From: Escherichia coli
GTDB lineage: Bacteria; Pseudomonadota; Gammaproteobacteria; Enterobacterales; Enterobacteriaceae
Direction: 5' to 3' (one strand)
NCBI RefSeq assembly: GCF_044324785.1
Contig: NZ_CP172127.1
Length of the DNA stretch: 64,000 bases
Within the stretch, counting starts at the first letter, position 1, and each line of letters opens with the position of its first letter. Position numbers and translations under genes: made by a program. The notes below the pieces were generated by a model. It made no database searches. It had not been told where the DNA came from and worked only from the letters and a program-made list of their open reading frames with translations. Shown one piece after another: positions 1-52,279 of the stretch.

Positions 1-650
1 GTTTCTGGTGCGTTTATGGCGTGATATGCCCCCCGCTTTGCTGAACCTGTCAGGAGTCTTTTTTCACCATGTGAGGTAATAGTCTGTGCTGCTGTTACTG
101 CGCCGGATTTATCCACCAGCGCCAGCAACAGAGATCCATCGGGCAACACGGGGAATGTAAAATCACCTACCCCTTTCGCAACCAGATAATCAGATTTGCC
201 GTTTACAGCCTTTCTGCGCATGTCATCAAACTGACGGGAAAACGTATCCCGTCTTTGTTGTTCGTCCTTCTCTGCCCTTTTCAGGCGCTCCTGTTCGCGT
301 CGCTGGCGCTCGGTTTCCAGTTGTTCCCGTTTCTGGCTGGTGGCTTCTGGTGTTTCCGTTGTCCGGTAATCAATACCCAGAACATCAGCGGCAAGAAGCG
401 CCGCCTCTGTTGTGTCGCAGTTATTTACGCGTTTAATTAAATCCAGCCCATCACCAGCGCCGCACTGATTACAGATGAAGCTACCGCGCCCGTTGTCATC
501 GAACCGGAATCGATCTTTGCCCCCACATGCAGGGCAGGGAGCATGACGGCGCGGAGAGTCAGGGACATTTATGTTCAGGCAGCCCAGCACATGAGGCCAG
601 TTGTTTTCAGACGCACTGATAACCTGACGGATAAGATCAATGTTTCGCAT
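1..650 (-). CDS. P4-family DNA primase, N-terminal part only (gene continues beyond window start)
   Basis: Manual translation of the minus strand from ATG at 650-648 gives MRNIDLIRQVISASENNWPHVLGCLNINVPDSPRRHAPCPACGGKDRFRFDDNGRGSFICNQCGAGDGLDLIKRV...; the CPxCGGxDRFRF...CNQCGxGDG pattern is the zinc-ribbon of P4 alpha/TraC-type primases. No stop before position 1. Confidence 0.6.
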   Translation of the reverse strand, partial: MRNIDLIRQVISASENNWPHVLGCLNINVPDSPRRHAPCPACGGKDRFRFDDNGRGSFICNQCGAGDGLDLIKRVNNCDTTEAALLAADVLGIDYRTTETPEATSQKREQLETERQRREQERLKRAEKDEQQRRDTFSRQFDDMRRKAVNGKSDYLVAKGVGDFTFPVLPDGSLLLALVDKSGAVTAAQTITSHGEKRLLTGSAKRGAYHAINAPE

Positions 651-1008
651 CACCGTACCCCACGTGGTCTATAGCGTTTGCGATATGGCTAACCAGCATC
701 TGCCACTTGGTTATTCCGTAATCAGTCAGCATGCCATCATTGTTTAGCCACATATCAAATTCAGCGGTTGTCGCAAGTTTCCACTTATCGCCGTGGACAG
801 TCCTCATTGCTGGGTACATGAATGCGCAAATCAGATCACAAACATCTGACGGCTTCAGAGATGTAGTAATGGTGCGTCCCTCTGGCGTCTGAATTGCCAT
901 TTTCTCTTCACCAGTAGAATGAAGGTTATGAATCCACACAGCACCAGCAATCTTTGCCACCTGCTCTCCGATTGCGGAGCTAAGCGCCATTTCTGCATTT
1001 TCACGCAT
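637..1008 (-). CDS. hypothetical protein (mobile element, 123 aa)
   Basis: ORF in same-strand tightly packed gene string; start/stop overlaps with neighbours suggest an operon. No recognisable motif. Confidence 0.45.
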   Translation of the reverse strand: MRENAEMALSSAIGEQVAKIAGAVWIHNLHSTGEEKMAIQTPEGRTITTSLKPSDVCDLICAFMYPAMRTVHGDKWKLATTAEFDMWLNNDGMLTDYGITKWQMLVSHIANAIDHVGYGDAKH

Positions 1009-1342
1009 GAGAACCTCCCGCTACAGTTGCGCCCATGTCATTAACCATGCTTTGCCATATCTCACGCCCGACGTCAGTCAATCCGTCCTTAGTGACGCAA
1101 CGTTCAAGAAGCTCGATCCCCACGGTTTCCCACTGCGGGTAGAACACTTTCATGGCTGCCAGTGTGTAGCTATCGATCAGGCTGCGAACGCCTTTTACTC
1201 CATTGACGATTTCCACACGGACGGCCTCGCCGTCCGCATCAACCATGAAATAGTCCCCGCCGCTGGTGGAGGTAATGTGGTTATACAGTGCCGACGCATA
1301 CTTATTTGCCAGCGCATTCAGTCGGAAATTTTTAGTAATCAT
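1001..1342 (-). CDS. hypothetical protein (mobile element, 113 aa)
   Basis: ORF overlapping the downstream ORF start by 8 nt, typical of translational coupling. No recognisable motif. Confidence 0.45.
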   Translation of the reverse strand: MITKNFRLNALANKYASALYNHITSTSGGDYFMVDADGEAVRVEIVNGVKGVRSLIDSYTLAAMKVFYPQWETVGIELLERCVTKDGLTDVGREIWQSMVNDMGATVAGGSHA

Positions 1343-1352
1343 GGCTCCATCC

Positions 1353-1955
1353 TCAGTGCGTCACTGGTTCCGCTGGCATGCCGTTTTCATTCAGTTCAGC
1401 TATAAAGCTGTTGTGAAGTTCAGCAAGCGTTTCACGCCCAAATGGAGTCAGTGCTCCTTGTTCCACATCCATCATGGCTCTGTAGAAAATGATGGCGCGT
1501 TCTGTGCCAGACTCGATGCCAAAACGTTCTATCATCGCGCCCTCAATGTTGTTTGCCATAGCGAGGCGCTCTGCTACTGGATACAGCGGCATGGCGACGA
1601 TGCCGTTGGAATAAACAGCCACTTCGGAAGGATTGCCAGTATCATCAATGATGCTGACAGTGCCGTTTTCCTCTCTCATTTCCAGCATGAATACTGTTGC
1701 GATCAGCCATCTCCACATAATGACGTTATGCTGTGATGTGTAATCGAAATATCCCTGGTTGCCGCCATCGGCAATAGCGAGATGTATTGACATACCTTCA
1801 TCTGGTTTATCGTCATAATCCCCGGCATCCAGACGATTTACGGCATCAATATATGAGATGGCCTCAACGCGTTCTGTCATGCCATCGTTGCTGCGGTACA
1901 TGATGTTTACGCCGTCAGGCGTTGCTTCTGCATGGAAAGTTAAGAAATTATTCAT
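1353..1955 (-). CDS. hypothetical protein (mobile element, about 200 aa)
   Basis: ORF 1353-2060 trimmed to the ATG at 1955-1953 (MNNFLTFHAEATPDG...) which lies 2 nt after the stop of the upstream 73-aa ORF; longer start would overlap that gene. Confidence 0.4.
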   Translation of the reverse strand: MNNFLTFHAEATPDGVNIMYRSNDGMTERVEAISYIDAVNRLDAGDYDDKPDEGMSIHLAIADGGNQGYFDYTSQHNVIMWRWLIATVFMLEMREENGTVSIIDDTGNPSEVAVYSNGIVAMPLYPVAERLAMANNIEGAMIERFGIESGTERAIIFYRAMMDVEQGALTPFGRETLAELHNSFIAELNENGMPAEPVTH

Positions 1956-2169
1956 GTTTCGCTTCGCCTGAATGATTCTGTAACTCATATTTGCCCAACA
2001 ATTCGTCCGCTTCCTGAATAGCTTCTGGTACGCCATTGAGCAGTGACATAACCGCGCCAATCATTAACTTGTCTCTGTTGCTGGGGCTGGCCCCTTCAAG
2101 CCAGAACCCTAAAACAGTCTGAACCTGTTCGATGCGACATTGCGCTTCAATGAGCTGGATGTTGGTCAT
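1948..2169 (-). CDS. hypothetical small protein (73 aa)
   Basis: ORF in operon-like array, start overlaps upstream ORF stop (2166-2169). Confidence 0.4.
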   Translation of the reverse strand: MTNIQLIEAQCRIEQVQTVLGFWLEGASPSNRDKLMIGAVMSLLNGVPEAIQEADELLGKYELQNHSGEAKHE

Positions 2170-2429
2170 TTCGCACTCTCCACATCGATTAAACCGATAT
2201 CTATCAGGGAGGTAACTTTTTGTAGCCAGCTATTGATTACTGTCGCCTGTTCCCCTCCCACCGAGGGAACAATCTCATTCATCACATGAACCAGACCTGT
2301 GCGCGCTCTGGTAAGCCGTTCAGTCGCGCAATCTGCGGGAGTGAATGTGTCTGGATATGGCTCTTCACGCCCCAGCAATGATTCAATTTCCAGCTCACAC
2401 GGATGACGATAAATTAAGTTGATATTCAT
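2166..2429 (-). CDS. hypothetical small protein (87 aa)
   Basis: ORF in operon-like array; 4-nt overlap with upstream ORF. Confidence 0.4.
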   Translation of the reverse strand: MNINLIYRHPCELEIESLLGREEPYPDTFTPADCATERLTRARTGLVHVMNEIVPSVGGEQATVINSWLQKVTSLIDIGLIDVESAK

Positions 2430-2620
2430 TTTTCACCCCCAAGAATTACCAGCTCGGCACGGGCATCGTTAACCAAAGATGAGCACGCTTTAATCGCATC
2501 CACGACATCAGCAGCGTCCATTTCTTCAGCCGAAAGACTGACAGCAACCAGGACAGCCGCTGCTTGCTCGATTAATTGAAGTGCGGACGTAAGGCGAGGG
2601 GTATTAATTGAGTTATTCAT
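2426..2620 (-). CDS. hypothetical small protein (about 64 aa)
   Basis: ORF 2426-2677 trimmed to ATG at 2620 ([10 protein letters not shown]...) preceded by a G-rich Shine-Dalgarno-like stretch. Confidence 0.35.
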   Translation of the reverse strand: MNNSINTPRLTSALQLIEQAAAVLVAVSLSAEEMDAADVVDAIKACSSLVNDARAELVILGGEK

Positions 2621-3680
2621 TGGTTGCCCCCGTTTTTCCTGGCATTTCGCCACCTTCCAGCAGGAAATGAACGTCACGAACGGCGAGATCCAATATCGCG
2701 AGTAACGCCTTCAGTCTTTCGTCTCGTGAGGGAGAGTTGCTCACCAGAATGTCGTTAATCACTTCTGTCAGTGTGATGATCTGGCTTGTGCGTTCGAGGG
2801 GATCCATATGCACATCGTAGGTTTTAATCATGAGCCACCTCCATGCGGATACGACCAGCAAAAAAGCAGACGTGATCGCGCACCAGAGAACGGCGAGCAT
2901 CGCGTTCAGACTCGGCAGCAATATGATGAATTTTGGCGGTAATTGTCGGGCAATCGCGGCGAACTGCGGCGATAATCCAGATAAATTGCGGTTTTTGGGT
3001 AGGGGTAGTAGCCAGCATGTGGCAGCCTCCATTCGATAGCATGTAACGCTACCACCGGAAACGCCAATTTCGCTGGTGGTAGCCCAGACAGGGTTGGCGT
3101 AACCGGCTCGAATGGATACCGGCGCTTCCGAAGAAGCCCCTGCCTGAGCCACCATTGATTGACAAAGGCGCTGGATTATACACCAACGCCCAAAAAATGG
3201 GTGAGTCAGACCTACGACATAAAAAAAGACGCTCGGCGCGTCATATGTCGCCATTCGATTTACCAGGACGCCAATCCCGGCACCCGTTTTATGAGGTGCC
3301 TTATAACCATAAACCGTGTTGCCGCATAACGGCAAGCTCTTTTTTATGGACTCCGAAAACTCGCTATTGGAAGCACCAGATGCACAGTACATCGCGCTCA
3401 TTTCGTTAACGTCACGCACGTGGACGAATGTTTTTGTGGAGTCACTACACGAGCGGAAGACATCATCTACGACCAGAAATTTTCTGGCGCAGCCGCTGAC
3501 CTTCTCAACGCTAACACCATCGACCGTAATTTCTGACATAGTTAAGGCATCCGCTCCCACCACCAGAAAATGATAAACTTTGCTTGTATCTGCTGTATTA
3601 ATGCCAGACTTTGCTGTCATATTGCTGGATTTTGGCGACATACCTGCCAGTGAAAATGTCTTCTTCTGGACGGTTAGCAT
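2613..3680 (-). CDS. hypothetical protein; gene structure uncertain (355-aa ORF, possibly two genes)
   Basis: Single uninterrupted ORF with a GGAGG Shine-Dalgarno 7 nt before its ATG at 3680; however a second strong GGAGGTG ribosome-binding site precedes an internal ATG at 2831 and the middle of the ORF has a W/C-rich composition atypical of real protein. Confidence 0.3.
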
Positions 3681-3856
3681 TTGTTAACCTCCGCGAACTC
3701 CTTCATGAAACGTGCCAGCGGTTGTACGCATGGCGATTGATACCCGTCGCGATAAAACGTCACTCGGTTGTGAGACACGCTTTCGACAGTAACGAGTGCT
3801 CCGTGGGCATCTTTGTAGCGTTTTTGAGGTTGTGGTGTTCCTGTCGGCTTAAACAT
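3674..3856 (-). CDS. hypothetical small protein (about 60 aa)
   Basis: ORF 3674-3943 trimmed to internal ATG (MFKPTGTPQPQK...) so that it does not run deep into the upstream gene; stop abuts the next ORF start. Confidence 0.3.
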   Translation of the reverse strand: MFKPTGTPQPQKRYKDAHGALVTVESVSHNRVTFYRDGYQSPCVQPLARFMKEFAEVNKC

Positions 3857-4682
3857 GGACCGCCTCCAGACGCTTGGCGAGCCAGCGTTGCGACAGGCGG
3901 GTGAGTTCTCCTTTGCGCTGCTCATATTCCATGCCCATATCAATTAACGTGATATTGGTGCTTTCGAGATATGAGAGGTGCTCAAGCTGTTCTGCGTTCA
4001 TATGGTCGCGAGGTTCGCCAGAATAGCCATTTATCCGCGCCCACTGCTTAGCAGTTAGCCCACCAAGAACGATACGAGAAATCATATTGCTCTCGTTTGT
4101 GTAGTGGTGTTGCTGCGTCGTTTTCCCCTGCTCGGCACGGGCCATATTCAGCGCATCGCACATTGGCTTAAAGTTGTTTGCGGCACTAATACGGGCTTTT
4201 AGCTGGCGACGATAGCGGGCGGCGATTTCAGGCACGCTACGCTGTAATTCTTCCTCGCACTGGATGAAATAACGACGGATAGCGCGACCCTGATCATTGC
4301 GTTCGATCATTGCCAGTTCTTTCGCCATTCCGACACTTAACAGATAGTCTTTGCCGGGTCTGCCAGACTGCTTAATCTTGCTGTAAGCCGCGCCATTCGG
4401 GCTTTTCCCCAAATTTGGGGAAATTGTTTTATGGACTGAGTAATCGTGCCCAATGGTGAAGTCATATTCAGAGATGCGATCAGTGATCCATGTAGAGAAG
4501 TCTTTTCCCACGCCCAACGCTTTGTGTAACGCTTTTGCGCTAACAATATTGGTTTCACGCCCACCGATATGACCAGGAATAACCGGGACAATTGCGGCAA
4601 ATTCATTACCGTTAATTGTGCCCAGAGAGGCGTTCAGATGAGGGGCGGCCTCAGAAATTAATCTGCTTTTTTCGATGTTCAT
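3849..4682 (-). CDS. phage antirepressor-like protein (AntA N-terminal / KilA-C-like C-terminal)
   Basis: 277-aa ORF; sequence features reminiscent of prophage antirepressor families (…AKALHKALGVGKDFSTWITDRI… and C-terminal …ELAMIERNDQGRAIRRYFIQCEEEL…). Family call from memory, not searched. Confidence 0.5.
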   Translation of the reverse strand: MNIEKSRLISEAAPHLNASLGTINGNEFAAIVPVIPGHIGGRETNIVSAKALHKALGVGKDFSTWITDRISEYDFTIGHDYSVHKTISPNLGKSPNGAAYSKIKQSGRPGKDYLLSVGMAKELAMIERNDQGRAIRRYFIQCEEELQRSVPEIAARYRRQLKARISAANNFKPMCDALNMARAEQGKTTQQHHYTNESNMISRIVLGGLTAKQWARINGYSGEPRDHMNAEQLEHLSYLESTNITLIDMGMEYEQRKGELTRLSQRWLAKRLEAVHV

Positions 4683-4694
4683 TTTCAGTCTCCG

Positions 4695-5126
4695 TTAGGC
4701 GGCGTTAAACGCGTCCGGGTAGAGTTTCAGAATGTCGGCAATTTCCTGCTGAGAAAGTCCGTTGTGATCATTTATGTTCGCAAGATGGTTAACATGAGTG
4801 ATCACTTTCAGAACATCACCACGGCAGGAGAAACGGTAGCGGAGGTGTGTTCCGATACCATCAGGATTCTTTTCGTCGATACGCTCCAGAATGATTCCAA
4901 GCTGGCGTTCTAACTCTGTTGCATAGTTACGACCAGAAGACAGACGGCAGTAGCGAAGAATGTCATTTTCTGTCCATCCCTCTATACCAGTACGCAGCAT
5001 ATAGACTCTGGCACGATGTTTTTTCGGTGTGCGCTTTGGTGCTTGAAGGGATTTTTTCAGGGGCGTAACATCAGACACGCGAATATCTGAATTAGCCGCC
5101 TGTAATGGGCGGTTTTTCTTTTCCAT
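4695..5126 (-). CDS. hypothetical protein (mobile element, 143 aa), basic N-terminus
   Basis: ORF immediately downstream of alpA-like gene with start/stop overlap at 5126. Confidence 0.45.
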   Translation of the reverse strand: MEKKNRPLQAANSDIRVSDVTPLKKSLQAPKRTPKKHRARVYMLRTGIEGWTENDILRYCRLSSGRNYATELERQLGIILERIDEKNPDGIGTHLRYRFSCRGDVLKVITHVNHLANINDHNGLSQQEIADILKLYPDAFNAA

Positions 5127-5329
5127 CAGGCCACCTTCCCGCGGCGTTCTGCCAGCCAGTTGTGAATCTCAACCGCATCAAACGCAGTTATTTTTTCTCC
5201 CAGCTTTACTGGACGTGGTAGTGAACCGTTTCTTACTTTACGGTCGATGGTGGATACACTAACGCCCAGCAATTCAGCCAGGCGAAAGCGTCTGATATAG
5301 CCTTTTGTAGGGATAGTGTCGATGTTCAT
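5126..5329 (-). CDS. alpA: AlpA-family prophage transcriptional regulator / excisionase-like HTH protein
   Basis: 67-aa ORF MNIDTIPTKGYIRRFRLAELLGVSVSTIDRKVRNGSLPRPVKLGEKITAFDAVEIHNWL...; size and HTH pattern match AlpA/Vis-like proteins of P4/CP4-type elements. Confidence 0.7.
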   Translation of the reverse strand: MNIDTIPTKGYIRRFRLAELLGVSVSTIDRKVRNGSLPRPVKLGEKITAFDAVEIHNWLAERRGKVA

Positions 5330-5435
5330 GATTCCCGTAACCTCTTAGCGATAGTTGTTGCTTCGTTACGAGAAATCTAGCTGTATAGATATACAATGAA
5401 AAGGTACTGTAATTTTGCAGTACCTCTATAGTAAG

Positions 5436-6386
5436 TTAACTATCCACTTTGCCATTTGCCGCAGATCGTAGATGTTTAAGAATTACATCTTCATTAGTTA
5501 TCATAAGTGGTGGAACTTCGTCTAAATGACGAACAAGACAGTCACGCCACTTCTCAGGGCTTATTTCTTTCCTTTCTCCCCTGCATTCATTTGGATACTT
5601 ACTAAGTATATAAATTGCAGATTTTAATAGTTTCTCCCTATTGACTGCGTACCGTTCGGCACGTTTATTAACTTTTAGCGTATTTATATCATTGGATAAC
5701 TTGTTTGCGGATGGTTTGTGCATGGGTCTGTCATAAATATATTTTCCTCCATTTATAAGAAGATTGTATTCATAGTCAGTTATATACATTTTGTTTCGGC
5801 TTATTTCATACCAGCCGTCAATATAAAAAGCTCCGATTTCATAATTATTCGATTTGCTAAACTCGTCACATCTCGGAGGTATCAGTTCGCATACAGAGAT
5901 CTCCCAATCATCCCATTCTGATAGCTCCCGCTCATCGTTATCTATGAACGCAGGCGGAATTGCTAATAGACCGCTCCATCTTTCGATATCTCTTTCATCC
6001 TTCCCAACATTGTATCGCTCTATAACTGAGAAATGTTCTGATTTGTATGAAAACCTCATAAAATACATATAGTTATCGCTATTTTTATAATCAAGTGATG
6101 ATAAGCCATATGATTCGAGATTATCTGCCTTATTGCTCAGATCAAGGAGATAATTCTCATGTGCTGCTTTTGTATCTATATGAAAAATACTATCTGTTTC
6201 AACTTTAAGTAATTCTGGCTCGGCATCTTCATTTTTTGGGTAATGGTAAAACAATTCAATAGGTGGAATTTTTATACATATTTCTAAAACCCCAATTGCT
6301 GCATAGTGTATTAAATCGGATACTTCACATCCGGCCAGTTTGGCTGCTTTATCCAAAGAATAATATTTATGCGCAGGTAATTTCAT
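5436..6386 (-). CDS. hypothetical cargo protein (316 aa), AT-rich, between integrase and alpA
   Basis: Long ORF with markedly AT-rich codon usage compared with flanking genes; N-terminus has an HTH-like stretch (SLDKAAKLAGCEVSDLIHYAAIG); acidic, Y/N/K-rich remainder without recognisable catalytic motif. Confidence 0.55.
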   Translation of the reverse strand: MKLPAHKYYSLDKAAKLAGCEVSDLIHYAAIGVLEICIKIPPIELFYHYPKNEDAEPELLKVETDSIFHIDTKAAHENYLLDLSNKADNLESYGLSSLDYKNSDNYMYFMRFSYKSEHFSVIERYNVGKDERDIERWSGLLAIPPAFIDNDERELSEWDDWEISVCELIPPRCDEFSKSNNYEIGAFYIDGWYEISRNKMYITDYEYNLLINGGKYIYDRPMHKPSANKLSNDINTLKVNKRAERYAVNREKLLKSAIYILSKYPNECRGERKEISPEKWRDCLVRHLDEVPPLMITNEDVILKHLRSAANGKVDS

Positions 6387-6404
6387 TATGAATCTTTCCT
6401 CTCA

Positions 6405-7658
6405 TCATGCTCTGATTGGCGTTACGTTGTAGTCTTTTCCGCTTTCCAGTGCCACCAGCAGATCTGCCCACTGTGCTAGTGCTGCTTTACGCTCATCAAA
6501 ATACTGATGACGGTTATAAATCCCCTCTACGCCCTTAATGCGATGATTGAGGCATCGTTCCGCCACGACAGGATCAACACCCAATGCTGCTAAATGAGTA
6601 CGTGCGGTGCGTCGGAAGTCGTGAATCGTGAAATTAGGCACATCCGGAATTTCGGCGCGAACCTTAGCCAGTGCTACGGGTAAAGTGCTTTCCTGAATAT
6701 GTGGGATCATTCTGTTTTGCATCTTCCTGGCCGGAAGCACCCATGCGCTATTACATGAAAAGGTGTGTAGCTCTCTCAACCATTCAACGGCTGGGGAAGG
6801 TAGAGGTATATCAATAGGGTCTCCGTTTTTGCTGCGTTCTTCCGGCAAATGCCATACCGCACCATCTAAATCAAACTCTTCCCATCGTGCGGCGCATAAC
6901 TCCATCTTACGAACGCATAGTGCCAGCAATAGTTTAAATGTCAGTTCGTTTTGGCGGCTGAATCCTTTTGCGGTGCGCATAGCCTCGAATAGTCTGATAA
7001 GCTCATCGCGAGTTAGCCAACGGTCGCGGGAAACCTCTTTACCACCAGCATCAGATACTTCAAACGCTGAACAAGGGTTTATCTCCAGAGCGTGGCGTTT
7101 TATCCCATAGTCAAAGATACGGCGTGTCCAGCGCAATACATCTGTTGCTATCGTTGGTGCTCCTCGGTCAACGATACCTTTCAACATGTCGTCAATGTGG
7201 CGTGGCTTAACGTCCTCTACCTTCATATGCCCAATGCAGGGGTTAATATCCTTATCAATTCTCCGGCGAAGGATATCGGGATGTTTCCATCTCGGAAGTA
7301 TCTGGCGCTCGAAGTATTCGGAGGCCAGATCTGAAACACGCATGGCGTTTTTCTCAGCCTCCATTTTTGCCAGTGCTTCAGCTTTTCGTTCCTGTTTCTC
7401 TGCTGCTACGTCATAGCCAAGAGCAACTCTGGCTGACAGCTCTTTTGCTGTTTCTCTGGCTTTTGATAGTGACAGTTCGGAGTAAGAGCCTATAACCATA
7501 GCCCGCTGCTTTCCTGCGAGCTTATAGCGGAATCGCCAGAACGGGACTGTGTAGTTTTTGGGGTAGCAAATATAAAGGCCGTTGCCGTCTGCCTTGCCAT
7601 CAAATCTGTCTCCCGCCTTTATCCATGCGCGGATCTGCATATCTGTGAGTTTTGGCAT
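6405..7658 (-). CDS. int: tyrosine site-specific integrase, P4-type
   Basis: ORF 6405-7742 trimmed to MPKLTDMQIRAWIKAGDRFDG... (typical P4-integrase N-terminus); C-terminal catalytic region contains ...HDFRRTARTHLAALGV... and ...GIYNRHQY... (R/H-x-x-R/Y signature). Confidence 0.85.
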   Translation of the reverse strand: MPKLTDMQIRAWIKAGDRFDGKADGNGLYICYPKNYTVPFWRFRYKLAGKQRAMVIGSYSELSLSKARETAKELSARVALGYDVAAEKQERKAEALAKMEAEKNAMRVSDLASEYFERQILPRWKHPDILRRRIDKDINPCIGHMKVEDVKPRHIDDMLKGIVDRGAPTIATDVLRWTRRIFDYGIKRHALEINPCSAFEVSDAGGKEVSRDRWLTRDELIRLFEAMRTAKGFSRQNELTFKLLLALCVRKMELCAARWEEFDLDGAVWHLPEERSKNGDPIDIPLPSPAVEWLRELHTFSCNSAWVLPARKMQNRMIPHIQESTLPVALAKVRAEIPDVPNFTIHDFRRTARTHLAALGVDPVVAERCLNHRIKGVEGIYNRHQYFDERKAALAQWADLLVALESGKDYNVTPIRA

Positions 7659-7686
7659 TGCGAATACCTGAATATCGAATATGGGT

Positions 7687-7738
7687 GTGTACATAAAGCA
7701 ATGTACATGAAAGTCATTATGTACACCTCTATGTACAC
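7687..7738. promoter_or_regulatory. four direct copies of ATGTACA-like motif just upstream of int: candidate integrase arm-type binding sites / att region
   Basis: gtgtacat (7687-7694), atgtacatg (7701-7709), atgtacac (7719-7726), atgtacac (7731-7738) visible directly in sequence. Confidence 0.35.
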
Positions 7739-7783
7739 GCATATTGTGCGCTTTGTTGCGTCGTTATGATAGCTCATGATAAC

Positions 7784-7820
7784 AAAAAAGCCCGACATTT
7801 CGCGGGCTTTGTGGTTTTTT
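7784..7820. terminator. bidirectional rho-independent terminator downstream of yicC
   Basis: aaaaaagcccg-acatttcg-cgggctttgtggtttttt: GC stem flanked by A-run and T-run. Confidence 0.5.
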
Positions 7821-7846
7821 GCTGCTTGGTGATTTTTACTGATAGC

Positions 7847-8710
7847 TTATTCGATATTCTGGATCTGCTCGCGCATCTGCTCAATCAACACTTTCAGCTC
7901 GATGGCGGAGTTTGTCACTTCGGCATTGATAGACTTCGAAGCAAGAGTGTTCGACTCGCGGTTGAACTCCTGCATCATAAAGTCCAGACGACGGCCAACC
8001 GCTTCTTTTTTCTTCAGAATGTTGTAGGTCTCTTTGACATGCGCTTCGAGGCGATCCAGTTCTTCGGCAACGTCAATTCGTTGTGCCAGCAGAACCAACT
8101 CCTGCTCCAGACGGTTGTTTTCCAGTTGCACCTGAGCATCTTCCAGCTTCGCGACCAGACGCTCACGCTGCCATTGCAGGATTTCCGGCATATGGGCGCG
8201 GACTTTGACCACTTCGGCGGTGACGCCTTCCAGACGCTGCTCGATCAATGCTTTCAGCGCCTGACCTTCGGTTTCGCGCGCGACGATAAAGTCGTCCAGC
8301 GTACCATCCAACGCCGCGAGAATTTCAGCGGCAATCGCGTCGAGATCCTGCTCCTGGGCTGCCATCACGCCCGGCCAGCGTAGAATATCAACCGGGTTGA
8401 TTTCCCCTTCGTCACTCTGCATTTTTACCCAGTTCGCGGCAGTTACCAGCTGTTTAGCCAGTTTTTCGTTAAGGATCAGCTCACCTTGTGCGCTAACATC
8501 TGGCTCATAACGCAGGGTACATTCCACTTTACCGCGCGTCAGGCGAGAACGAATACGCTCGCGAACGACAGGTTCAAGGCTACGGAACTGCTCCGGCAGA
8601 CGAAAGTAAGTTTCCAGATAACGCTGGTTTACCGAGCGCATTTCCCAGGTTGCGCTCCCCCATTCACCCTTGATTTCACGCCGGGCGTAGGCGGTCATAC
8701 TGCGGATCAT
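7847..8710 (-). CDS. yicC: YicC family stress-induced protein
   Basis: 287-aa ORF MIRSMTAYARREIKGEWGSATWEMRSVNQRYLETYFRLPEQFR... recognised as YicC; conserved position next to rph. Confidence 0.9.
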   Translation of the reverse strand: MIRSMTAYARREIKGEWGSATWEMRSVNQRYLETYFRLPEQFRSLEPVVRERIRSRLTRGKVECTLRYEPDVSAQGELILNEKLAKQLVTAANWVKMQSDEGEINPVDILRWPGVMAAQEQDLDAIAAEILAALDGTLDDFIVARETEGQALKALIEQRLEGVTAEVVKVRAHMPEILQWQRERLVAKLEDAQVQLENNRLEQELVLLAQRIDVAEELDRLEAHVKETYNILKKKEAVGRRLDFMMQEFNRESNTLASKSINAEVTNSAIELKVLIEQMREQIQNIE

Positions 8711-8836
8711 AGACGTTCCTGTTTATAAAAGGAGAGGTGGAAGGATTATAGCCATCGATGCCTTGTCAGGATAGGAATAACCGCCGGAAGTCCGTATAAT
8801 GCGCAGCCACATTTGTTTCAAGCCGGAGATTTCAAT

Positions 8837-9553
8837 ATGCGTCCAGCAGGCCGTAGCAATAATCAGGTGCGTCCCGTTACCCTGACTCGTAACTATACAA
8901 AACATGCAGAAGGCTCGGTGCTGGTCGAATTTGGCGATACCAAAGTATTGTGTACCGCCTCTATTGAAGAAGGCGTGCCGCGCTTCCTGAAAGGTCAGGG
9001 CCAGGGCTGGATCACCGCAGAGTACGGCATGCTGCCACGTTCTACCCACACCCGTAACGCGCGTGAAGCGGCGAAAGGTAAGCAGGGTGGACGCACCATG
9101 GAAATCCAGCGTCTGATCGCCCGTGCTCTTCGCGCGGCAGTAGATTTGAAAGCGCTGGGTGAGTTCACTATTACGCTGGACTGCGACGTGCTTCAGGCTG
9201 ATGGTGGCACGCGTACCGCGTCGATTACGGGTGCCTGCGTGGCGCTGGCAGATGCGCTACAGAAGCTGGTGGAAAACGGCAAGCTGAAAACCAACCCGAT
9301 GAAAGGGATGGTAGCCGCGGTTTCTGTCGGGATTGTGAACGGCGAAGCGGTTTGCGATCTGGAATACGTTGAAGACTCAGCCGCAGAGACCGACATGAAC
9401 GTAGTGATGACCGAAGACGGGCGCATCATTGAAGTGCAGGGGACGGCAGAAGGCGAGCCGTTCACCCATGAAGAGTTACTCACCTTGTTGGCGCTGGCCC
9501 GAGGGGGAATCGAATCCATTGTAGCGACGCAGAAGGCGGCGCTGGCAAACTGA
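8837..9553 (+). CDS. rph: ribonuclease PH (full length)
   Basis: ORF trimmed to [42 protein letters not shown]...; 238 aa, intact C-terminus. Confidence 0.9.
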
Positions 9554-9560
9554 TTTTTAA

Positions 9561-9586
9561 GGCGACTGATGAGTCGCCTTTTTTTT
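9561..9586 (+). terminator. rph-pyrE intercistronic attenuator hairpin with T8 tract
   Basis: ggcgact-gatg-agtcgcc followed by tttttttt, read directly; matches the known UTP-sensitive pyrE attenuator location. Confidence 0.7.
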
Positions 9587-9618
9587 GTCTGTAGAAAAGT
9601 AAGATGAGGAGCGAAGGC

Positions 9619-10260
9619 ATGAAACCATATCAGCGCCAGTTTATTGAATTTGCGCTTAGCAAGCAGGTGTTAAAGTTTGGCGAGTTTACGCTGAAGTCCG
9701 GGCGCAAAAGCCCCTATTTCTTCAACGCCGGGCTGTTTAATACCGGGCGCGATCTGGCACTGTTAGGCCGTTTTTACGCTGAAGCATTGGTGGATTCCGG
9801 CATTGAGTTCGATCTGCTGTTTGGCCCTGCTTACAAAGGGATTCCGATTGCCACCACAACTGCCGTGGCGCTGGCGGAGCATCATGACCTGGACCTGCCG
9901 TACTGCTTTAACCGCAAAGAAGCAAAAGACCACGGTGAAGGCGGCAATCTGGTCGGTAGCGCGTTACAAGGACGCGTAATGCTGGTGGATGATGTGATCA
10001 CCGCCGGAACGGCGATTCGCGAGTCGATGGAAATTATTCAGGCCAATGGCGCGACGCTTGCTGGCGTGTTGATTTCGCTCGATCGTCAGGAACGGGGGCG
10101 CGGCGAGATTTCGGCAATTCAGGAAGTTGAGCGTGATTACAACTGCAAAGTGATCTCTATCATCACCCTGAAAGACCTGATTGCTTACCTGGAAGAGAAG
10201 CCGGAAATGGCGGAACATCTGGCGGCGGTTAAGGCCTATCGCGAAGAGTTTGGCGTTTAA
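9619..10260 (+). CDS. pyrE: orotate phosphoribosyltransferase
   Basis: [40 protein letters not shown]...; PRTase motif [13 protein letters not shown]. Confidence 0.95.
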
Positions 10261-10295
10261 AAATATGCGCTGTGCAGGGTTTTTGCTGTGCGCAG

Positions 10296-10326
10296 CGTGA
10301 TGCGCTTTAAGATATCGTGTTAATCT
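10296..10326 (+). promoter_or_regulatory. possible retron promoter (extended -10 TGt-TAATCT, weak -35)
   Basis: TG at 10318-10319 followed by taatct at 10321-10326, about 6 nt upstream of the predicted msr 5' end at 10332. Weak match; could also be read-through from pyrE. Confidence 0.25.
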
Positions 10327-10331
10327 GCTTT

Positions 10332-10525
10332 CGCCAGCAGTGGCAATAGCGTTTCCGGCCTTTTGTGCCGGGAGGGTCGGCGAGTCGCCGACTTAACGCC
10401 AGTAGTATGTCCATATACCCAAAGTCGCTTCATTGTACCTGAGTACGCTTCGCGTACGTCGCGCTGACGCGCTCAGTACAGTTACGCGCCTTCGGGATGG
10501 TTTAATGGTATTGCCGCTGTTGGCG
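10332..10525 (+). ncRNA. msr-msd: retron msr-msd non-coding RNA (template and primer for msDNA), bounded by a1/a2 inverted repeats
   Basis: a1 10332-10348 (cgccagcagtggcaata) pairs with a2 10509-10525 (tattgccgctgttggcg) as a 17-bp RNA duplex with two G-U wobbles; unpaired G at 10349 in the context AUAG-C is the candidate branching G; msr hairpins ccggc-cttttgt-gccgg (10355-10371) and gtcggcg-agt-cgccgac (10376-10392); msd palindromic block 10434-10480. Confidence 0.6.
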
Positions 10526-10557
10526 CCTCTTTTGGCCGCCGTGATGTGGAGAGTGGA

Positions 10558-11517
10558 ATGGATGCTACCCGGATAACCCTTCTGGCGCTCGATTTGTTCG
10601 GCTCGCCGGGCTGGAGCGCCGATAAAGAAATACAGCGGCTGTATGCGCTCAGTAATCATGCCGGACGCCATTACCGACGCATTATTCTTTCTAAACGCCA
10701 CGGTGGTCAGCGGCTGGTGTTAGCCCCTGATTACTTGCTCAAAACCGTACAGCGCAACATTCTTAAGAACGTTCTTTCACAATTTCCGCTTTCCCCTTTT
10801 GCTACAGCCTACCGACCAGGTTGCCCAATTGTCAGCAACGCGCAGCCTCACAGCCAACAGCCACAAATACTGAAACTCGATATCGAAAACTTTTTCGATA
10901 GTATTAGCTGGTTACAGGTCTGGCGTGTGTTTCGCCAGGCCCAGTTGCCACGTAATGTGGTAACCATGCTGACCTGGATTTGTTGTTATAACGACGCGTT
11001 ACCGCAGGGGGCACCAACTTCGCCAGCCATTTCCAATCTTGTGATGCGCTGTTTTGATGAGTGCATCGGGGCATGGTGCCAGGCACGAGGAATTACCTAC
11101 ACCCGCTACTGCGATGACATGACTTTTTCAGGTCACTTCAATGCCCGCCAGGTTAAAAATAAAGTGTGCGGATTGTTAGCGGAGATGGGCCTGAGCCTCA
11201 ATCAACGCAAAAGCTCCCTGATAGCTGCCTGTAAGCGCCAGCAGGTAACCGGGATTGTTGTTAATCACAAACCACAGCTTGCCCGCGAAGCGCGGCGGGC
11301 GCTGCGTCAGGAAGTACACTTATGCCAAAAATATGGCGTCATTTCGCATCTTAGTCGTCGTGGTGAACTTGATCCTTCATGCGATCTCCATGCACAGGCA
11401 ACGGCGTATCTTTATGCTTTGCAGGGAAGAATAAACTGGCTATTGCAAATCAATCCTGAGGATGAGGCCTTTAAACAGGCGAGGGAAAGTGTAAAGCGAA
11501 TGCTGTTGGCATGGTAA
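10558..11517 (+). CDS. ret: retron-type reverse transcriptase (319 aa)
   Basis: Start at ATG 10558 preceded by GGAGAG; contains RT motifs ...LPQGAPTSPAISNL... and ...ITYTRYCDDMTFSG... (YxDD box); size typical of retron RTs with no extra fused domain. Confidence 0.9.
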   Translation: MDATRITLLALDLFGSPGWSADKEIQRLYALSNHAGRHYRRIILSKRHGGQRLVLAPDYLLKTVQRNILKNVLSQFPLSPFATAYRPGCPIVSNAQPHSQQPQILKLDIENFFDSISWLQVWRVFRQAQLPRNVVTMLTWICCYNDALPQGAPTSPAISNLVMRCFDECIGAWCQARGITYTRYCDDMTFSGHFNARQVKNKVCGLLAEMGLSLNQRKSSLIAACKRQQVTGIVVNHKPQLAREARRALRQEVHLCQKYGVISHLSRRGELDPSCDLHAQATAYLYALQGRINWLLQINPEDEAFKQARESVKRMLLAW

Positions 11518-11525
11518 GAAAAGCG

Positions 11526-11547
11526 TCAGGCAGACGTTTCTGCCTGA
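11526..11547. terminator. hairpin between convergent RT and slmA genes
   Basis: tcaggcaga-cgtt-tctgcctga perfect 9-bp stem in the 43-bp gap. Confidence 0.45.
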
Positions 11548-11560
11548 ACGTTTGGGAGAA

Positions 11561-12157
11561 TTACTGCAACTGTGCGGCAATTAGCGGCCAGCGGGCGTCA
11601 AAATCATCCGTCGGGCGGTATTTAAACTCGCTGCGGACAAAGCGTGACAGCATACCTTCACAGAAGGCCAGGATCTGGCTTGCCAGCAGGGTTTCATCGG
11701 TGGTGTAACCTTCACCCTCACGCATTCTCTTTTCGCGCAATACCTGACGCAACTGCGCTTCAATACGCTCGAACAGCTGGTTGATGCGCCCTTGCAGGCG
11801 ATCCTGTTCAAACATTAGTGCATGACCAGTGAGGATGCGGGTCAGGCCAGGATTACGCTCACCAAAACCGAGAAGCAGCAACACAATCAGACGCAGGCGC
11901 GCTGTGGTGTCCTTCTCATCTTTCAGAATCAGATTGATGCGAGTAATCAGGCTATCTTCGATAAACTCAATCAGGCTATCGAACATGCGGGTCTTACTGG
12001 GGAAGTGGCGATACAGTGCCGCTTCGGAAACGCCGACAGAGGCGGCCAGTTTTGCCGTCGTGATACGTTGGCTTCCATCGCTGGATTCCAGCATCAGCGC
12101 CAGAGACTGAAGTATTTCCTCGCGACGGTTCCTTTTCGCAGTTTGTTTTTCTGCCAT
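11561..12157 (-). CDS. slmA: nucleoid occlusion factor SlmA (TetR family)
   Basis: ORF trimmed to [52 protein letters not shown]... Confidence 0.9.
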
Positions 12158-12263
12158 GTTACAAAATACCCCTGAAAATAAGCACTTGCCAGGCGGCACC
12201 CACGCTATGACCGCAAACGAAATGTTTGCGGCTATGTTATGACGTTATTCGGATGCGTATGTG

Positions 12264-12722
12264 TTACTGACGACCAGAGTGACCAAAGCCGCCTTCACCG
12301 CGGTCGGTGGCGTCGAAATCTTCCACCAGATTAAATTCAGCCTGTACTACCGGAACAAAAATCATCTGGGCGATGCGTTCGCCAGGTTGAATGGTGAAGC
12401 TGTCCTGACCACGGTTCCACACGGAAATCATCAACTGGCCCTGATAGTCGGAATCGATCAATCCTACCAGGTTACCAAGCACGATACCGTGCTTATGTCC
12501 CAATCCGGAGCGCGGCAGCATCATTGCCGCCAGTGAAGGATCGGCAATATGAATCGCCAGCCCGGTCGGAACCAGCGTAGTGTCACCCGGAGCCAGTTCT
12601 ACGGCGTCGTCGAGACAGGCACGCAGGTCAAGTCCGGCAGAGCCAGAGGTGGCATAAGTCGGGAGCGGAAATTCCTTCCCAACGCGCGGGTCCAGAATCT
12701 TAACGTCGATTTTTTTCATCAT
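12264..12722 (-). CDS. dut: dUTP diphosphatase
   Basis: [37 protein letters not shown]... recognised. Confidence 0.9.
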
Positions 12723-46564: not shown

Positions 46565-49500
46565 TTACCACTGAATACCGGCACCGAGTGCGGCGGAGTA
46601 TTCACCCTGGCTATTGGTACTACCTTGTAATTTGTAGACCCAACGACCATTGGCGCTCACCATCGACACACCTAAAGCAACAGCCGACTCACCGTTGTAA
46701 GTACCGCCACCAATAGAGGCCATACTGGCACCTGGAGTGTAAGCCTGCGGCAGACCGGTCATTGCCATTGCAGAAGCGATACCACCGCTCAACTTGCTTT
46801 CGGTTTTGGACAGTTTGTTATCCATCTCAACCATCCGCTGATCGGTGTATTGCTTCGTTTCCTGCACGCTTTGCTTCAGCTGCGCATAGTTCACTGCGTC
46901 GTTGTTGTTCACGCCAGCGGAGACGTTGCTGATGCGAGTCGTACCGCCATTACCACCACCGAGAGTGATGTTGCTGTAGTCTACAGAGCCATCAGCTTTG
47001 GTGTCGTAACGAACGCCGCCTGCCTCAGAAGACTTCAGCTGCGAAACGTTAACCGCATCGGTGGCATTAACACCTGCAGCAACGTTGGTGATACGACGCT
47101 GGTTGGTAGAAGAACCCACAGAGATGGTATTTTCTTCGTTGGCCACGGAGCCTGTACCCAGCGCGACGCTGTTGTCAGCGGCAGCAATGGAACCAGAACC
47201 AATCGCAACACTGTCTTTACCCTGCGCGTTGGCATCTACGCCATCGGTGTTGGTCTTGAAGTATTTGGTGCTACCGGTGGTTACGATATCGCCAATGCCG
47301 TTTTCGATATTGGTAACGCGAGTATCCAGATTCGTCACCTGATTGTTCAGGTTAGTAATGCTCTGGGTATTCTGGGAAACCTGCGCGTCCGTTACTTTCA
47401 ACTGACCCACGTTGACCGCATCGGTATCAGCCGAACCAGCCGCGACGTTGGTGATCTGACGTTGACCGTCTTCACTGCCGACAGAGAACTCACCCACAGA
47501 GTTCTGCGGTGCATCCATGTTGTAGGCGGTGTAGCCAGTTTGAGCACCACGAGTCGTCTGTGAGCCATTACCCATAGCAATGCTGTTTGCATGGTTTGCA
47601 CGCGCGTTGCTACCAATAGCAATACCGTTGATCGCATCAGACAGAACCAGAGTGTTCAGGCCGATACCAATGCCCGCATTACCATTAACGATAGTATTCG
47701 CGCCCATTGCCAGCGAGTCAGTACCTACTGCCAGTGAATCTTCTTCCGTTGAATTAGCGTGGAAGTATTTAGTCGGCGTGGTTGCAACTGCACCAATGGC
47801 ATTTTGCAACTGGCGAACCGTAACGGCGTCATGGGCTTCGGAACCATCGGCTACGTTGATGATTTGACGATATTTACCATCATCACCAATAGACAACGCA
47901 CCAAGTAGTTCGCCATCCGTGGTGTCATAACCAATCACAACACCTTCTTCCGACACGCTGGTGTCACGAGAACCTTTAACTATTACACGGCTGGAAACAG
48001 AACTGCTACCCAGGGCGATACCCGTATCAACGTCGCTGTAGCTGTCCTGACCGATGACTACACTGCTATGGCCTTCGGCAACAGCGTTATAACCCACGGC
48101 CACGCTGCTATCGCCTTTGGCAACAGAGTCATAACCGACAGCGGTAGAGCCGATACCAACTGCGCTGGCGTCGTTGAACGCTAAGCCCTTATCGTTGGTA
48201 CGCACATAGTTAATACCTGCACCATTTTCGTTGATATAGGATTCGCTGGTGTCACCGGCAAGCTGATTGATGATTTCGCTGTTCTGCTGGATCATCATAT
48301 TGGTGTTAAACAGCTGAGAACCGTTGATGGCGTCGGTACTGCCTTCGCCAATGTTACCATCAGCAACGTTTGTGATGATGCTGGCCTTGCCGTCATGGCT
48401 GGCGTTGTAGGCACCTGCACCGTCATTGGCCGTTGCATCCCACAGCAGAGCGTTATCGTCGAGCGCATCCAGGGCGTCACCGACGTTGTTGTACTCGGCA
48501 TTTGCAATGGTGTAACTCGGCGCAGTGATAGTGCCGTCAGCGTTAACTTCTGCGTCACCCCCCAGGGCATCGGCAATGTATTTGTTGGTGGTATACAGTT
48601 GTGAACCGTTAATGGCATCGCTGCTGGTGGCAGAGATTGCACCGTTAGCGACGTTAGTGATTACACTGGCTGTTTTATCTTTTCCGTGAGCGGCGCTAAA
48701 TGCACCATTACCATCATTGGCTGTAGCATCCCACAGCAGGGCGTCATCCAGCGTGGTATCGATCGCTTCCAGCGCGTCACCGACGTTGCTGTAACTGCCG
48801 CCAGCGATGGCATAAGTCGGTGCGGTGATTGTGCCGTCAGCATTGACTTCTGCGTCACCACCCAGAGTATCGGCAATGTACTTGCTGGTGTCATAGAGCT
48901 GTGAGCCGTTAATAGCGTCGCTGCTGGTAGAGGAAATTGCACCGTCTGCAACATTAGTAATGATGCTGGCCATGTTATCTTTTCCGCGACCGGCGCTAAA
49001 CGCACCGTCACCGCCCTTGGCGGTCGCATCCCAGAGTAGGGCGTCACCGAGTGATGTGCTAAATGACGTGTTAATGGCTGCCAGAGCCTCACCGACGTTA
49101 TTGTAGTCAGTACCACCAATAGTGTAGGTTGGCCCGGTTAATACACCCGCATCGCTGATATCAGCACCACCGCCAAGGTATGACGTAAATGAATCAGCTA
49201 AGCCATAAAGTTGTGAGCCATTAATGGCGTCAGTGCTGTCAGAGGATACTGTGCCTGCCAGTAAGTTGGTGATTTTGCTGTCAGTACCGTTGGTGCCGTG
49301 TTTGGCACTGAATGCACCCGCCGTAGCATTCCACAGCAGAGAGTCATCACCGAGACTGTCAACAGCATCACTCAGGTTGTTGATATTGGTAGTGTTGGTG
49401 GTGATATTGGCGGTATTGGTCGCCACGTTATCGTTGGTGGTTTTCAGCTGAGAGCCGTTAACCGCGTCGGTGCTGCCAGCCGCCAGTTCACCGGCTTTGA

Positions 49501-52279
49501 CGTTGGTGATTTTGTTGGTGGCATCGGTGCCGTGCGCGGCGCTGAATGCTTTCGCTGCATCATTCCACAGCAGAGAGTCATCACCGAGACTGTCAACAGC
49601 GTCAGTCAGGTTGGTGATGTTGGTGGTGTTCGTGGCGATATTGGTGGTGTTGGCTGCCACGGCATCGTTAGTGGTTTTGAGCTGAGAGCCGTTAACCGCG
49701 TCGGTGCTGCCAGCCGTCAGGTCACCGTCTTTGACGTTAGTGATTTTGCTGGTGGCATCGGTACCGTGTGCGGCGCTGAATGCTTTCGCTGCATCATTCC
49801 ACAGCAGAGAGTCATCACCGAGACTGTCAACAGCGTCAGTCAGGTTGGTGATGTTGGTGGTGTTCGTGGCGATATTGGTGGTGTTGGCTGCCACGGCATC
49901 GTTAGTGGTTTTGAGCTGAGAGCCGTTAACCGCGTCGGTGCTGCCAGCCGTCAGGTCACCGTCTTTGACGTTAGTGATTTTGCTGGTGGCATCGGTACCG
50001 TGTGCGGCGCTGAATGCTTTCGCTGCATCATTCCACAGCAGAGAGTCATCACCGAGACTGTCAACAGCGTCAGTCAGGTTGGTGATGTTGGTGGTGTTCG
50101 TGGCGATATTGGTGGTGTTGGCTGCCACGGCATCGTTAGTGGTTTTGAGCTGAGAGCCGTTAACAGCGTCGGTGCTGCCAGCCGTCAGGTCACCGTCTTT
50201 GACGTTGGTGATTTTGCTGGTGGCATCGGTGCCGTGCGCGGCGCTGAACGCGGTGCCATTCCACAGCAGGGCATCGTCTTTAAGGTCGCCAACGGAATCA
50301 GTCAGGTTGGTGATATTGGTGGTGTTGGTCGCTACGTTATCGTTGGTGGTTTTGAGCTGAGAGCCGTTAACCGCGTCAGTGCTGCCAGCCGTCAGGTCAC
50401 CGTCTTTGACGTTGGTGATTTTGCTGGTGGCATCGGTGCCGTGCGCGGCGCTGAACGCGGTGCCATTCCACAGCAGGGCATCGTCTTTAAGGTCGCCAAC
50501 GGAATCAGTCAGGTTGGTGATATTGGTGGTGTTGGTCGCTACGTTATCGTTGGTGGTTTTGAGCTGAGAGCCGTTAACCGCGTCAGTGCTGCCAGCCGTC
50601 AGGTCACCGTCTTTGACGTTAGTGATTTTGCTGGTGGCATCGGTGCCGTGCGCGGCGCTGAACGCGGTGCCATTCCACAGCAGGGCATCGTCTTTAAGGT
50701 CGCCAACGGAATCCGTCAGGGTATTGATACTGTTAGTGTTGGTGGTGATATTGGCAGTATTGGTCGCTACGTTATCGTTGGTGGTTTTCAGCTGAGAACC
50801 GTTAACCGCATCCTTACTGGTATCAGAAATAGCGCCGTCTTTAACGTTGGTGATGGTACTGGTAGTATCTGTACCATGTGCCGCACTATATGCCTTTTTA
50901 AGGGAGTCCCATTGTAACGTATTATTGTCCAGGCCCGTTAAGGCGTCGCCAACAGTGCCGAAAATACCACTTTTCAGCCTGTAATTTGGGGAAGTAACGA
51001 CGCCTTGCGCATTGACGGTAGCCCCCCCACCAAGATTGTCCGCTACTGACTTACTGATAGCATAAAGCTGTGATCCATTGATGGCATCAGTACTGGTAGT
51101 GCTGATATCACCTGCTGCCATATTGACAATTTGTCGCTGAGCTGTTGTGTTACCCACAGAAACAGTATCCGCGTCAGTCGCTACAGAACCAGCACCCAGA
51201 GCAACTGAATTTTTCCCCTGAGCACTGGCTTGAGCACCAATTGCAGTGCCATTTTCTAAACCGGCATAACTGCCTTGTCCAAGAGCAATAGCATTTACAC
51301 CACCTGTAATACTACCATTACCCAGCGCGATAGCATTTGCGCCGTCAGCTTTATTCCCTTGACCGATGGCAATTGCGCCAGCCGCTACTGCCTGACTTTG
51401 ATTGCCCAGAGCAATCGTGTTGTCGACATCTGCAATACTGCCGGAGCCCAACGCGATACTATTAAGTCCATTTGCCTCCGCGTTAGTACCAACTGCCGTC
51501 GCATTTTCAGCAGCTTTGCTCTCTGCACCCATAGCAATCGCGTTTGCGTCGCTGGCGGCGGATAGTCTGCCTAATGCGAGGCTGTCTACGCCAGCAGCAG
51601 CACTGTTACGGCCTACTGCAATCGCGTTAGCTGCAGATGCGGCACTACTTGCACCCAGCGCCATTGCATATTCTTTCGACGCATTAGCCGTTGCACCGAG
51701 GGCGATACTCATAATTCCTAAGGCCTTGCTCTTACGTCCAAATGCGATGGCGTCATCAGCACCAGTCTCTGCGTAATCCCCTTGTGCAATAGCAAATTCA
51801 CCTGTTGAGTTTGCATAACGACCAAGTGCGATTGAAAATCCACCCGTTGACGTTGCCGATGCACCTATAGCGAGGCTTCGCTCACCTGCTGAGATAGTGT
51901 TAATCCCTAACGCCACTGATGCTTCGCCAAGCGAATGGGTCTTAGCACCGAGGGCTGTTGACCACCTTCCGTCAGCAGTTGAGTGATAACCTACTGCGGT
52001 GCTGGAGCCACCCCCGGTGTCTGTAAAGCTATTTGCTTTTGCATCTTCACCGATAGCAACCCAGCCTGTTCCTGTGCCCTGGCCATAATTGACGCCCTGA
52101 CCGTTGTCAATCCCGGCATTCGCCAGTGCCCCAAACGACGACAACAACCCACCCGCAACCAGGGCAGAAATTAACAGCTTACTGCGCCCGCTCTTTTTGC
52201 CACGGCTTTTGGCCGTTTCGCTGGCAACGGTGTAACTGCCCGTAGCCGGATTCCAGATAACTTTAAAAATTTTGTTCAT
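46565..52279 (-). CDS. trimeric autotransporter adhesin (YadA-like membrane anchor; UpaG/EhaG/SadA family), 1904 aa
   Basis: N-terminal extended signal peptide [21 protein letters not shown]...; hundreds of residues of NxxAxG/SxAxG head and neck repeats; C-terminal YadA-type anchor ...[41 protein letters not shown] ending in aromatic residue. Confidence 0.9.
49452..50800. repeat. near-identical in-frame tandem repeats inside the autotransporter gene (3 x 234 bp then 3 x 207 bp)
   Basis: Antisense ORF track shows identical 71-aa peptides at 49704 and 49938 (period 234) and identical 62-aa peptides at 50172 and 50379 (period 207); in the sense frame the protein repeats [48 protein letters not shown]... 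Confidence 0.85.

Follow-up and report, generated by a model that had tools for sequence, protein, structure and literature searches.

The pyrBI leader attenuator of E. coli is a UTP-sensitive, translation-coupled switch in which the ribosome behind a UTP-slowed polymerase prevents formation of the terminator hairpin. The pyrE attenuator follows the same logic, with the difference that the coupled frame of pyrBI is a short dedicated leader peptide, whereas pyrE makes use of the last part of a complete enzyme gene, rph. In two published accounts, read-through of the intercistronic pyrE attenuator is described as requiring tight coupling between translation of rph and transcription, and the rph-1 frameshift is reported to break this coupling, to cut PyrE and to cause partial pyrimidine starvation (PMC11148124, PMC2784333, citing Jensen 1993 and Bonekamp et al. 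1984). The same accounts give UTP-dependent read-through into pyrE as known for K-12 rph+ (PMC11148124, PMC2784333). In laboratory evolution of rph-1 strains, a recurrent 82-bp deletion puts the stop codon beside the attenuator loop, a point mutation in the rph–pyrE intergenic region is fixed as well, and an rph-1 strain grows about 55% faster with mutations that restore pyrE expression (PMC6941894, PMC3203608).

The stretch of DNA analysed here is 64,000 nt long (the window; all positions are counted from its first letter), and it almost certainly carries the wild-type form of the E. coli rph–pyrE operon, including an attenuator that is coupled to translation and sensitive to UTP. With the operon described in rph+ E. 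coli (Poulsen, Bonekamp and Jensen 1984; Jensen 1993) it shares the genes, their order and the 5-nt spacing between the rph stop codon and the hairpin, and it differs by neutral-looking substitutions alone, the two amino acid changes in the rph product relative to the MG1655 frame being A138 in place of V and T216 in place of I. The rph-1 allele of MG1655, W3110 and BW25113 has the same locus and the same attenuator sequence; it differs in having a run of four G, a 228-aa product with an altered tail and a stop codon 34 nt from the hairpin, where the window has five G and 5 nt.

The rph gene of the window lies on the plus strand at 8837–9553 and reads from the ATG at 8837 to the TGA at 9551–9553, 239 codons in all, which corresponds to a full-length RNase PH of 238 aa. 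The program-made open reading frame begins earlier, at a TTG at 8813, and is 246 aa long; the MG1655 annotation places the start of rph at the ATG of 8837, and a GGAG 8 nt in front of this ATG (8825–8828, plus strand) is likely to serve as the ribosome-binding site. A scan of the region upstream of rph for consensus promoters found none; a TATAAT at 8795–8800 was not called the rph promoter as it is without a good -35 hexamer at 16–18 nt. Against the NCBIfam equivalog model for RNase PH (TIGR01966, curated cut-off 141.5 bits) the product scores 380.8 bits and covers model positions 1–235 of 236, while the match of the MG1655 product extends only to model position 221. It contains both Pfam domains of RNase PH, RNase_PH (PF01138) and RNase_PH_C (PF03725), and its residues 2–237 align to a solved 239-aa RNase PH (PDB 1r6l) with an E-value of 3.7e-104. 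The gene is thus predicted to encode a complete RNase PH with phosphorolytic 3' exoribonuclease activity.

The comparison with K-12 was made by alignment to MG1655 positions 3813500–3818500; the annotation of that genome calls rph a 'truncated RNase PH'. The site of the one-base rph-1 deletion is a run of five G at 9503–9507 (plus strand), which is intact in the window and is four G long in MG1655. Loss of this single G shifts the MG1655 frame so that the product ends in ...ARGESNPL and a stop after 228 aa. Up to Gly223 the MG1655 protein is that of the window save for A138V and T216I, and ESNPL and the stop follow. The premature TAG corresponds to 9522–9524 (plus strand) of the window, where it is out of frame and not used. 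In MG1655 the distance between the end of translation and the hairpin is therefore 34 nt, against 5 nt for the natural TGA, and translation ends about 29 nt earlier. The first-pass annotation of this DNA, which covered 8837–9586, exactly the interval that opens with the rph start codon and closes with the last T of the tract, had described an rph frame of 238 aa without the C-terminal frameshift of common K-12 laboratory strains, followed by an intact hairpin and eight T. The translation, the full-length family match and the alignment bear this description out: the frameshift is present in MG1655 and absent from the window, and positions 9504–9695, which run from the last part of rph through the attenuator with its hairpin and T8 tract and on through the ribosome-binding site and first 25 codons of pyrE, are 100% identical in the two sequences. 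Identity to MG1655 also extends over 8511–8946, including the region upstream of rph; in the alignment as a whole, rph and pyrE have 12 substitutions each.

Since the rph-1 deletion is absent, the window does not come from the MG1655/W3110 branch, in agreement with the non-MG1655 lineage proposed in the first-pass annotation. The intact frame is nevertheless weak evidence on this point when taken by itself: the K-12 strains JM83, JM109 and XL1-Blue are rph+ as well (PMC11148124), so that an intact frame alone does not exclude K-12. If the DNA came from an rph+ K-12 laboratory line of the JM83, JM109 or DH10B type, the state of rph would say nothing about its origin, and the two stretches identical to MG1655 would speak for such a line. 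What sets the window apart from K-12 as a whole, judged by the alignment, is the 12 substitutions in rph and the 12 in pyrE together with flanks that are not those of K-12. Homology to K-12 stops just past yicC, where an island with a tyrosine integrase stands in place of dinD, and unlike in K-12 an insert of 1.3 kb that resembles the Ec107 retron lies between pyrE and slmA. The closest matches to rph–pyrE are likewise outside K-12, in IAI39, CE10 and ST648-type strains (99.1%). An origin in an rph+ K-12 line was rejected on these substitutions and flanks, and we give it practically no chance. Among 5426 complete E. coli genomes in RefSeq none is identical to the window; over 24 kb, the highest identities are 98.8% for 16000–40000 and 99.5% for 40000–64000, the latter in strain N3.

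The island itself is P4-like, occupies approximately positions 1–7846 and adjoins yicC at the position that dinD has in K-12. Its genes include, all on the minus strand, a tyrosine integrase (6405–7742), a 316-aa open reading frame without a Pfam or PADLOC match (5436–6386), a protein with an AntA domain that matches PADLOC PDC-S22 weakly (3849–4682) and an Ash-family protein (2613–3680). There is no tRNA gene in the whole 64,000-nt window, and the integration site of the island would therefore not be a tRNA. Elsewhere in the window, a 1904-aa open reading frame (46565–52279, minus strand), the counterpart of which is annotated as a YadA-like adhesin in related genomes, lies near a region encoding an RHS core protein (56263–58176, minus strand), with mtlA and lldPD in the neighbourhood. 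For the RHS part, each genome typically offers many matching places (median 16).

The frequency of the two rph states among complete E. coli genomes was estimated with short diagnostic sequences. The 93-mer at 9494–9586, which spans the G5 run, the stop codon, the hairpin and the T8 tract, was counted within a band of at least 99% identity, which at 93 nt means zero differences, and it was found exactly in 4665 of 5424 genomes, i.e. at least 86%. The corresponding 91-mer of the MG1655 rph-1 allele occurs exactly in 167 genomes (about 3%). Among the matches listed for it (40 of the 167), all are K-12 laboratory strains or have K-12-like coordinates, and MG1655, W3110, BW25113, J53 and HMS174 are among them. 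Approximately 590 of the 5424 genomes match neither sequence exactly and may carry substitutions or other indels. On these counts the intact rph is to be regarded as the usual wild-type state and rph-1 as a rare laboratory exception.

The gene order around the operon, yicC, rph and pyrE followed by slmA–dut–coaBC, is that of other E. coli. After the natural rph stop TGA (9551–9553, plus strand), 5 nt remain before the attenuator hairpin (9559–9580, plus strand), which was detected by the terminator scan and by RNA folding and is the same as in MG1655. The attenuator is thus identical in sequence to the one from K-12 on which the experiments were done. In the DNA it reads AAGGCGACT-GATG-AGTCGCCTT, followed by the T's, and as RNA AAGGCGACU-GAUG-AGUCGCCUU, with a stem of 9 pairs, 5 of them G-C, and a 4-nt loop. 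The T8 tract is at 9579–9586 (plus strand), and its first two T are shared with the base of the hairpin stem. The 61 nt of RNA around the attenuator fold with a free energy of -18.5 kcal/mol (z = -3.1), and 2 of 200 shuffled sequences fold equally well. The region between rph and pyrE thus holds the G+C-rich hairpin and the U run of an attenuator, with the rph stop codon within a few nucleotides. An Rfam scan of 7500–12500 at E <= 1 found no attenuator or retron-RNA family and gave only two hits, both at chance level; Rfam appears to be without a model for either the pyrE attenuator or the retron RNA. Downstream, a GAGGAG at 9606–9611 (plus strand), 7 nt before the ATG and the same as in MG1655, is the likely pyrE ribosome-binding site. 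The pyrE gene itself (9619–10260, plus strand) encodes an orotate phosphoribosyltransferase of 213 aa with a Pfam Pribosyltran domain; the protein scores 240.6 bits against TIGR00336 (curated cut-off 106.8 bits), and its length and start are those of MG1655 b3642.

With this arrangement rph and pyrE would be transcribed together, with an intrinsic terminator, the 9559–9580 hairpin and the T8 tract, between them. At low UTP the RNA polymerase would move slowly across the U-rich end of rph and the ribosome translating rph would be close behind; on reaching the TGA 5 nt before the hairpin this ribosome would cover the 5' arm, the hairpin would not form and transcription would proceed into pyrE. 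At high UTP the polymerase would outrun the ribosome, the hairpin would form and most transcripts would end before pyrE. In MG1655 and W3110, which carry rph-1, the ribosome stops about 29 nt too early, so that termination is always high and PyrE low, with partial pyrimidine starvation as the consequence.

As the geometry of the locus is undamaged, both in sequence identity and in where the rph frame stops, it is a straightforward inference that UTP-sensitive attenuation of pyrE would be normal in the source strain, and hence PyrE levels as well. It is conceivable that the regulation of pyrE departs from the classic case in spite of the intact frame and hairpin, through the promoter, polymerase pausing or the retron that follows pyrE. 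The palindrome that K-12 has after pyrE is indeed exchanged for this retron, the pyrE stop codon is followed by a different hairpin that lacks a T run, and the speed of translation might in principle be altered by the 12 rph changes, which are synonymous or near-synonymous. However, identity to K-12 covers the region upstream of rph, the final 50 nt of the gene, the attenuator and the start of pyrE, and 381 complete E. coli genomes have this retron in the same position, which suggests that the arrangement is tolerated. We consider such a departure very improbable. The 3' end of the pyrE transcript may differ from that in K-12 because the retron replaces the palindromic intergenic sequence, but as the attenuator is located upstream of pyrE, the retron should not affect it. 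The preferred reading, a wild-type operon that would be under normal UTP-sensitive attenuation, is ordinary textbook biology, and no feature of the sequence speaks against it.

The element next to pyrE is an Ec107-type retron (Retron-Eco5), which by comparison of the junctions occupies 10261–11560, where K-12 has a palindromic intergenic sequence between pyrE and slmA. Its reverse transcriptase, a 323-aa open reading frame with a YCDD box (10546–11517, plus strand), matches the PADLOC RT_Ec107-like model with an E-value of 5.5e-132, and 22-nt inverted repeats of the a1/a2 type lie upstream of it at 10332–10353 and 10504–10525. The YCDD box is the form reported for Ec107, and Retron-Ec107 is described as replacing the palindromic intergenic sequence (PMC6868368). 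With a reverse transcriptase of this type, the upstream a1/a2 repeats and the insertion between pyrE and slmA, the element has the features of Retron Ec107, and production of msDNA is predicted. Of 5426 complete E. coli genomes, 381 have this retron at the pyrE–slmA site; none of their copies exceeds 96.9% identity to the copy in the window, while the adjoining rph–pyrE reaches 99.1%. An exact 60-mer over the junction between pyrE and the retron is absent from the GTDB representative genomes.

Directly after the pyrE stop codon there is a stable hairpin without a T run (10267–10298), and the terminator scan found no canonical terminator between pyrE and the retron RNA gene. The output of the UTP-sensing attenuator might thus reach the retron RNA and the reverse transcriptase by read-through from rph–pyrE, or PyrE, being a phosphoribosyltransferase, might be the partner protein that the retron lacks. 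Mestre et al. 2020 (PMC7736814) note that the reverse transcriptase of Ec107 adjoins pyrE and that PRTase-like effectors occur in sister clades of the retron; they regard the adjacency of the Ec107 reverse transcriptase and pyrE as possibly coincidental. A link of either kind between the operon and the retron appears highly doubtful to us.

The intact rph is of little practical consequence. It is a useful strain marker and a check on the sequence, although it is the state to be expected in about 97% of sequenced E. coli. As the source is not of the MG1655, W3110 or BW25113 type, it should be free of the pyrimidine limitation that these strains experience in minimal medium.
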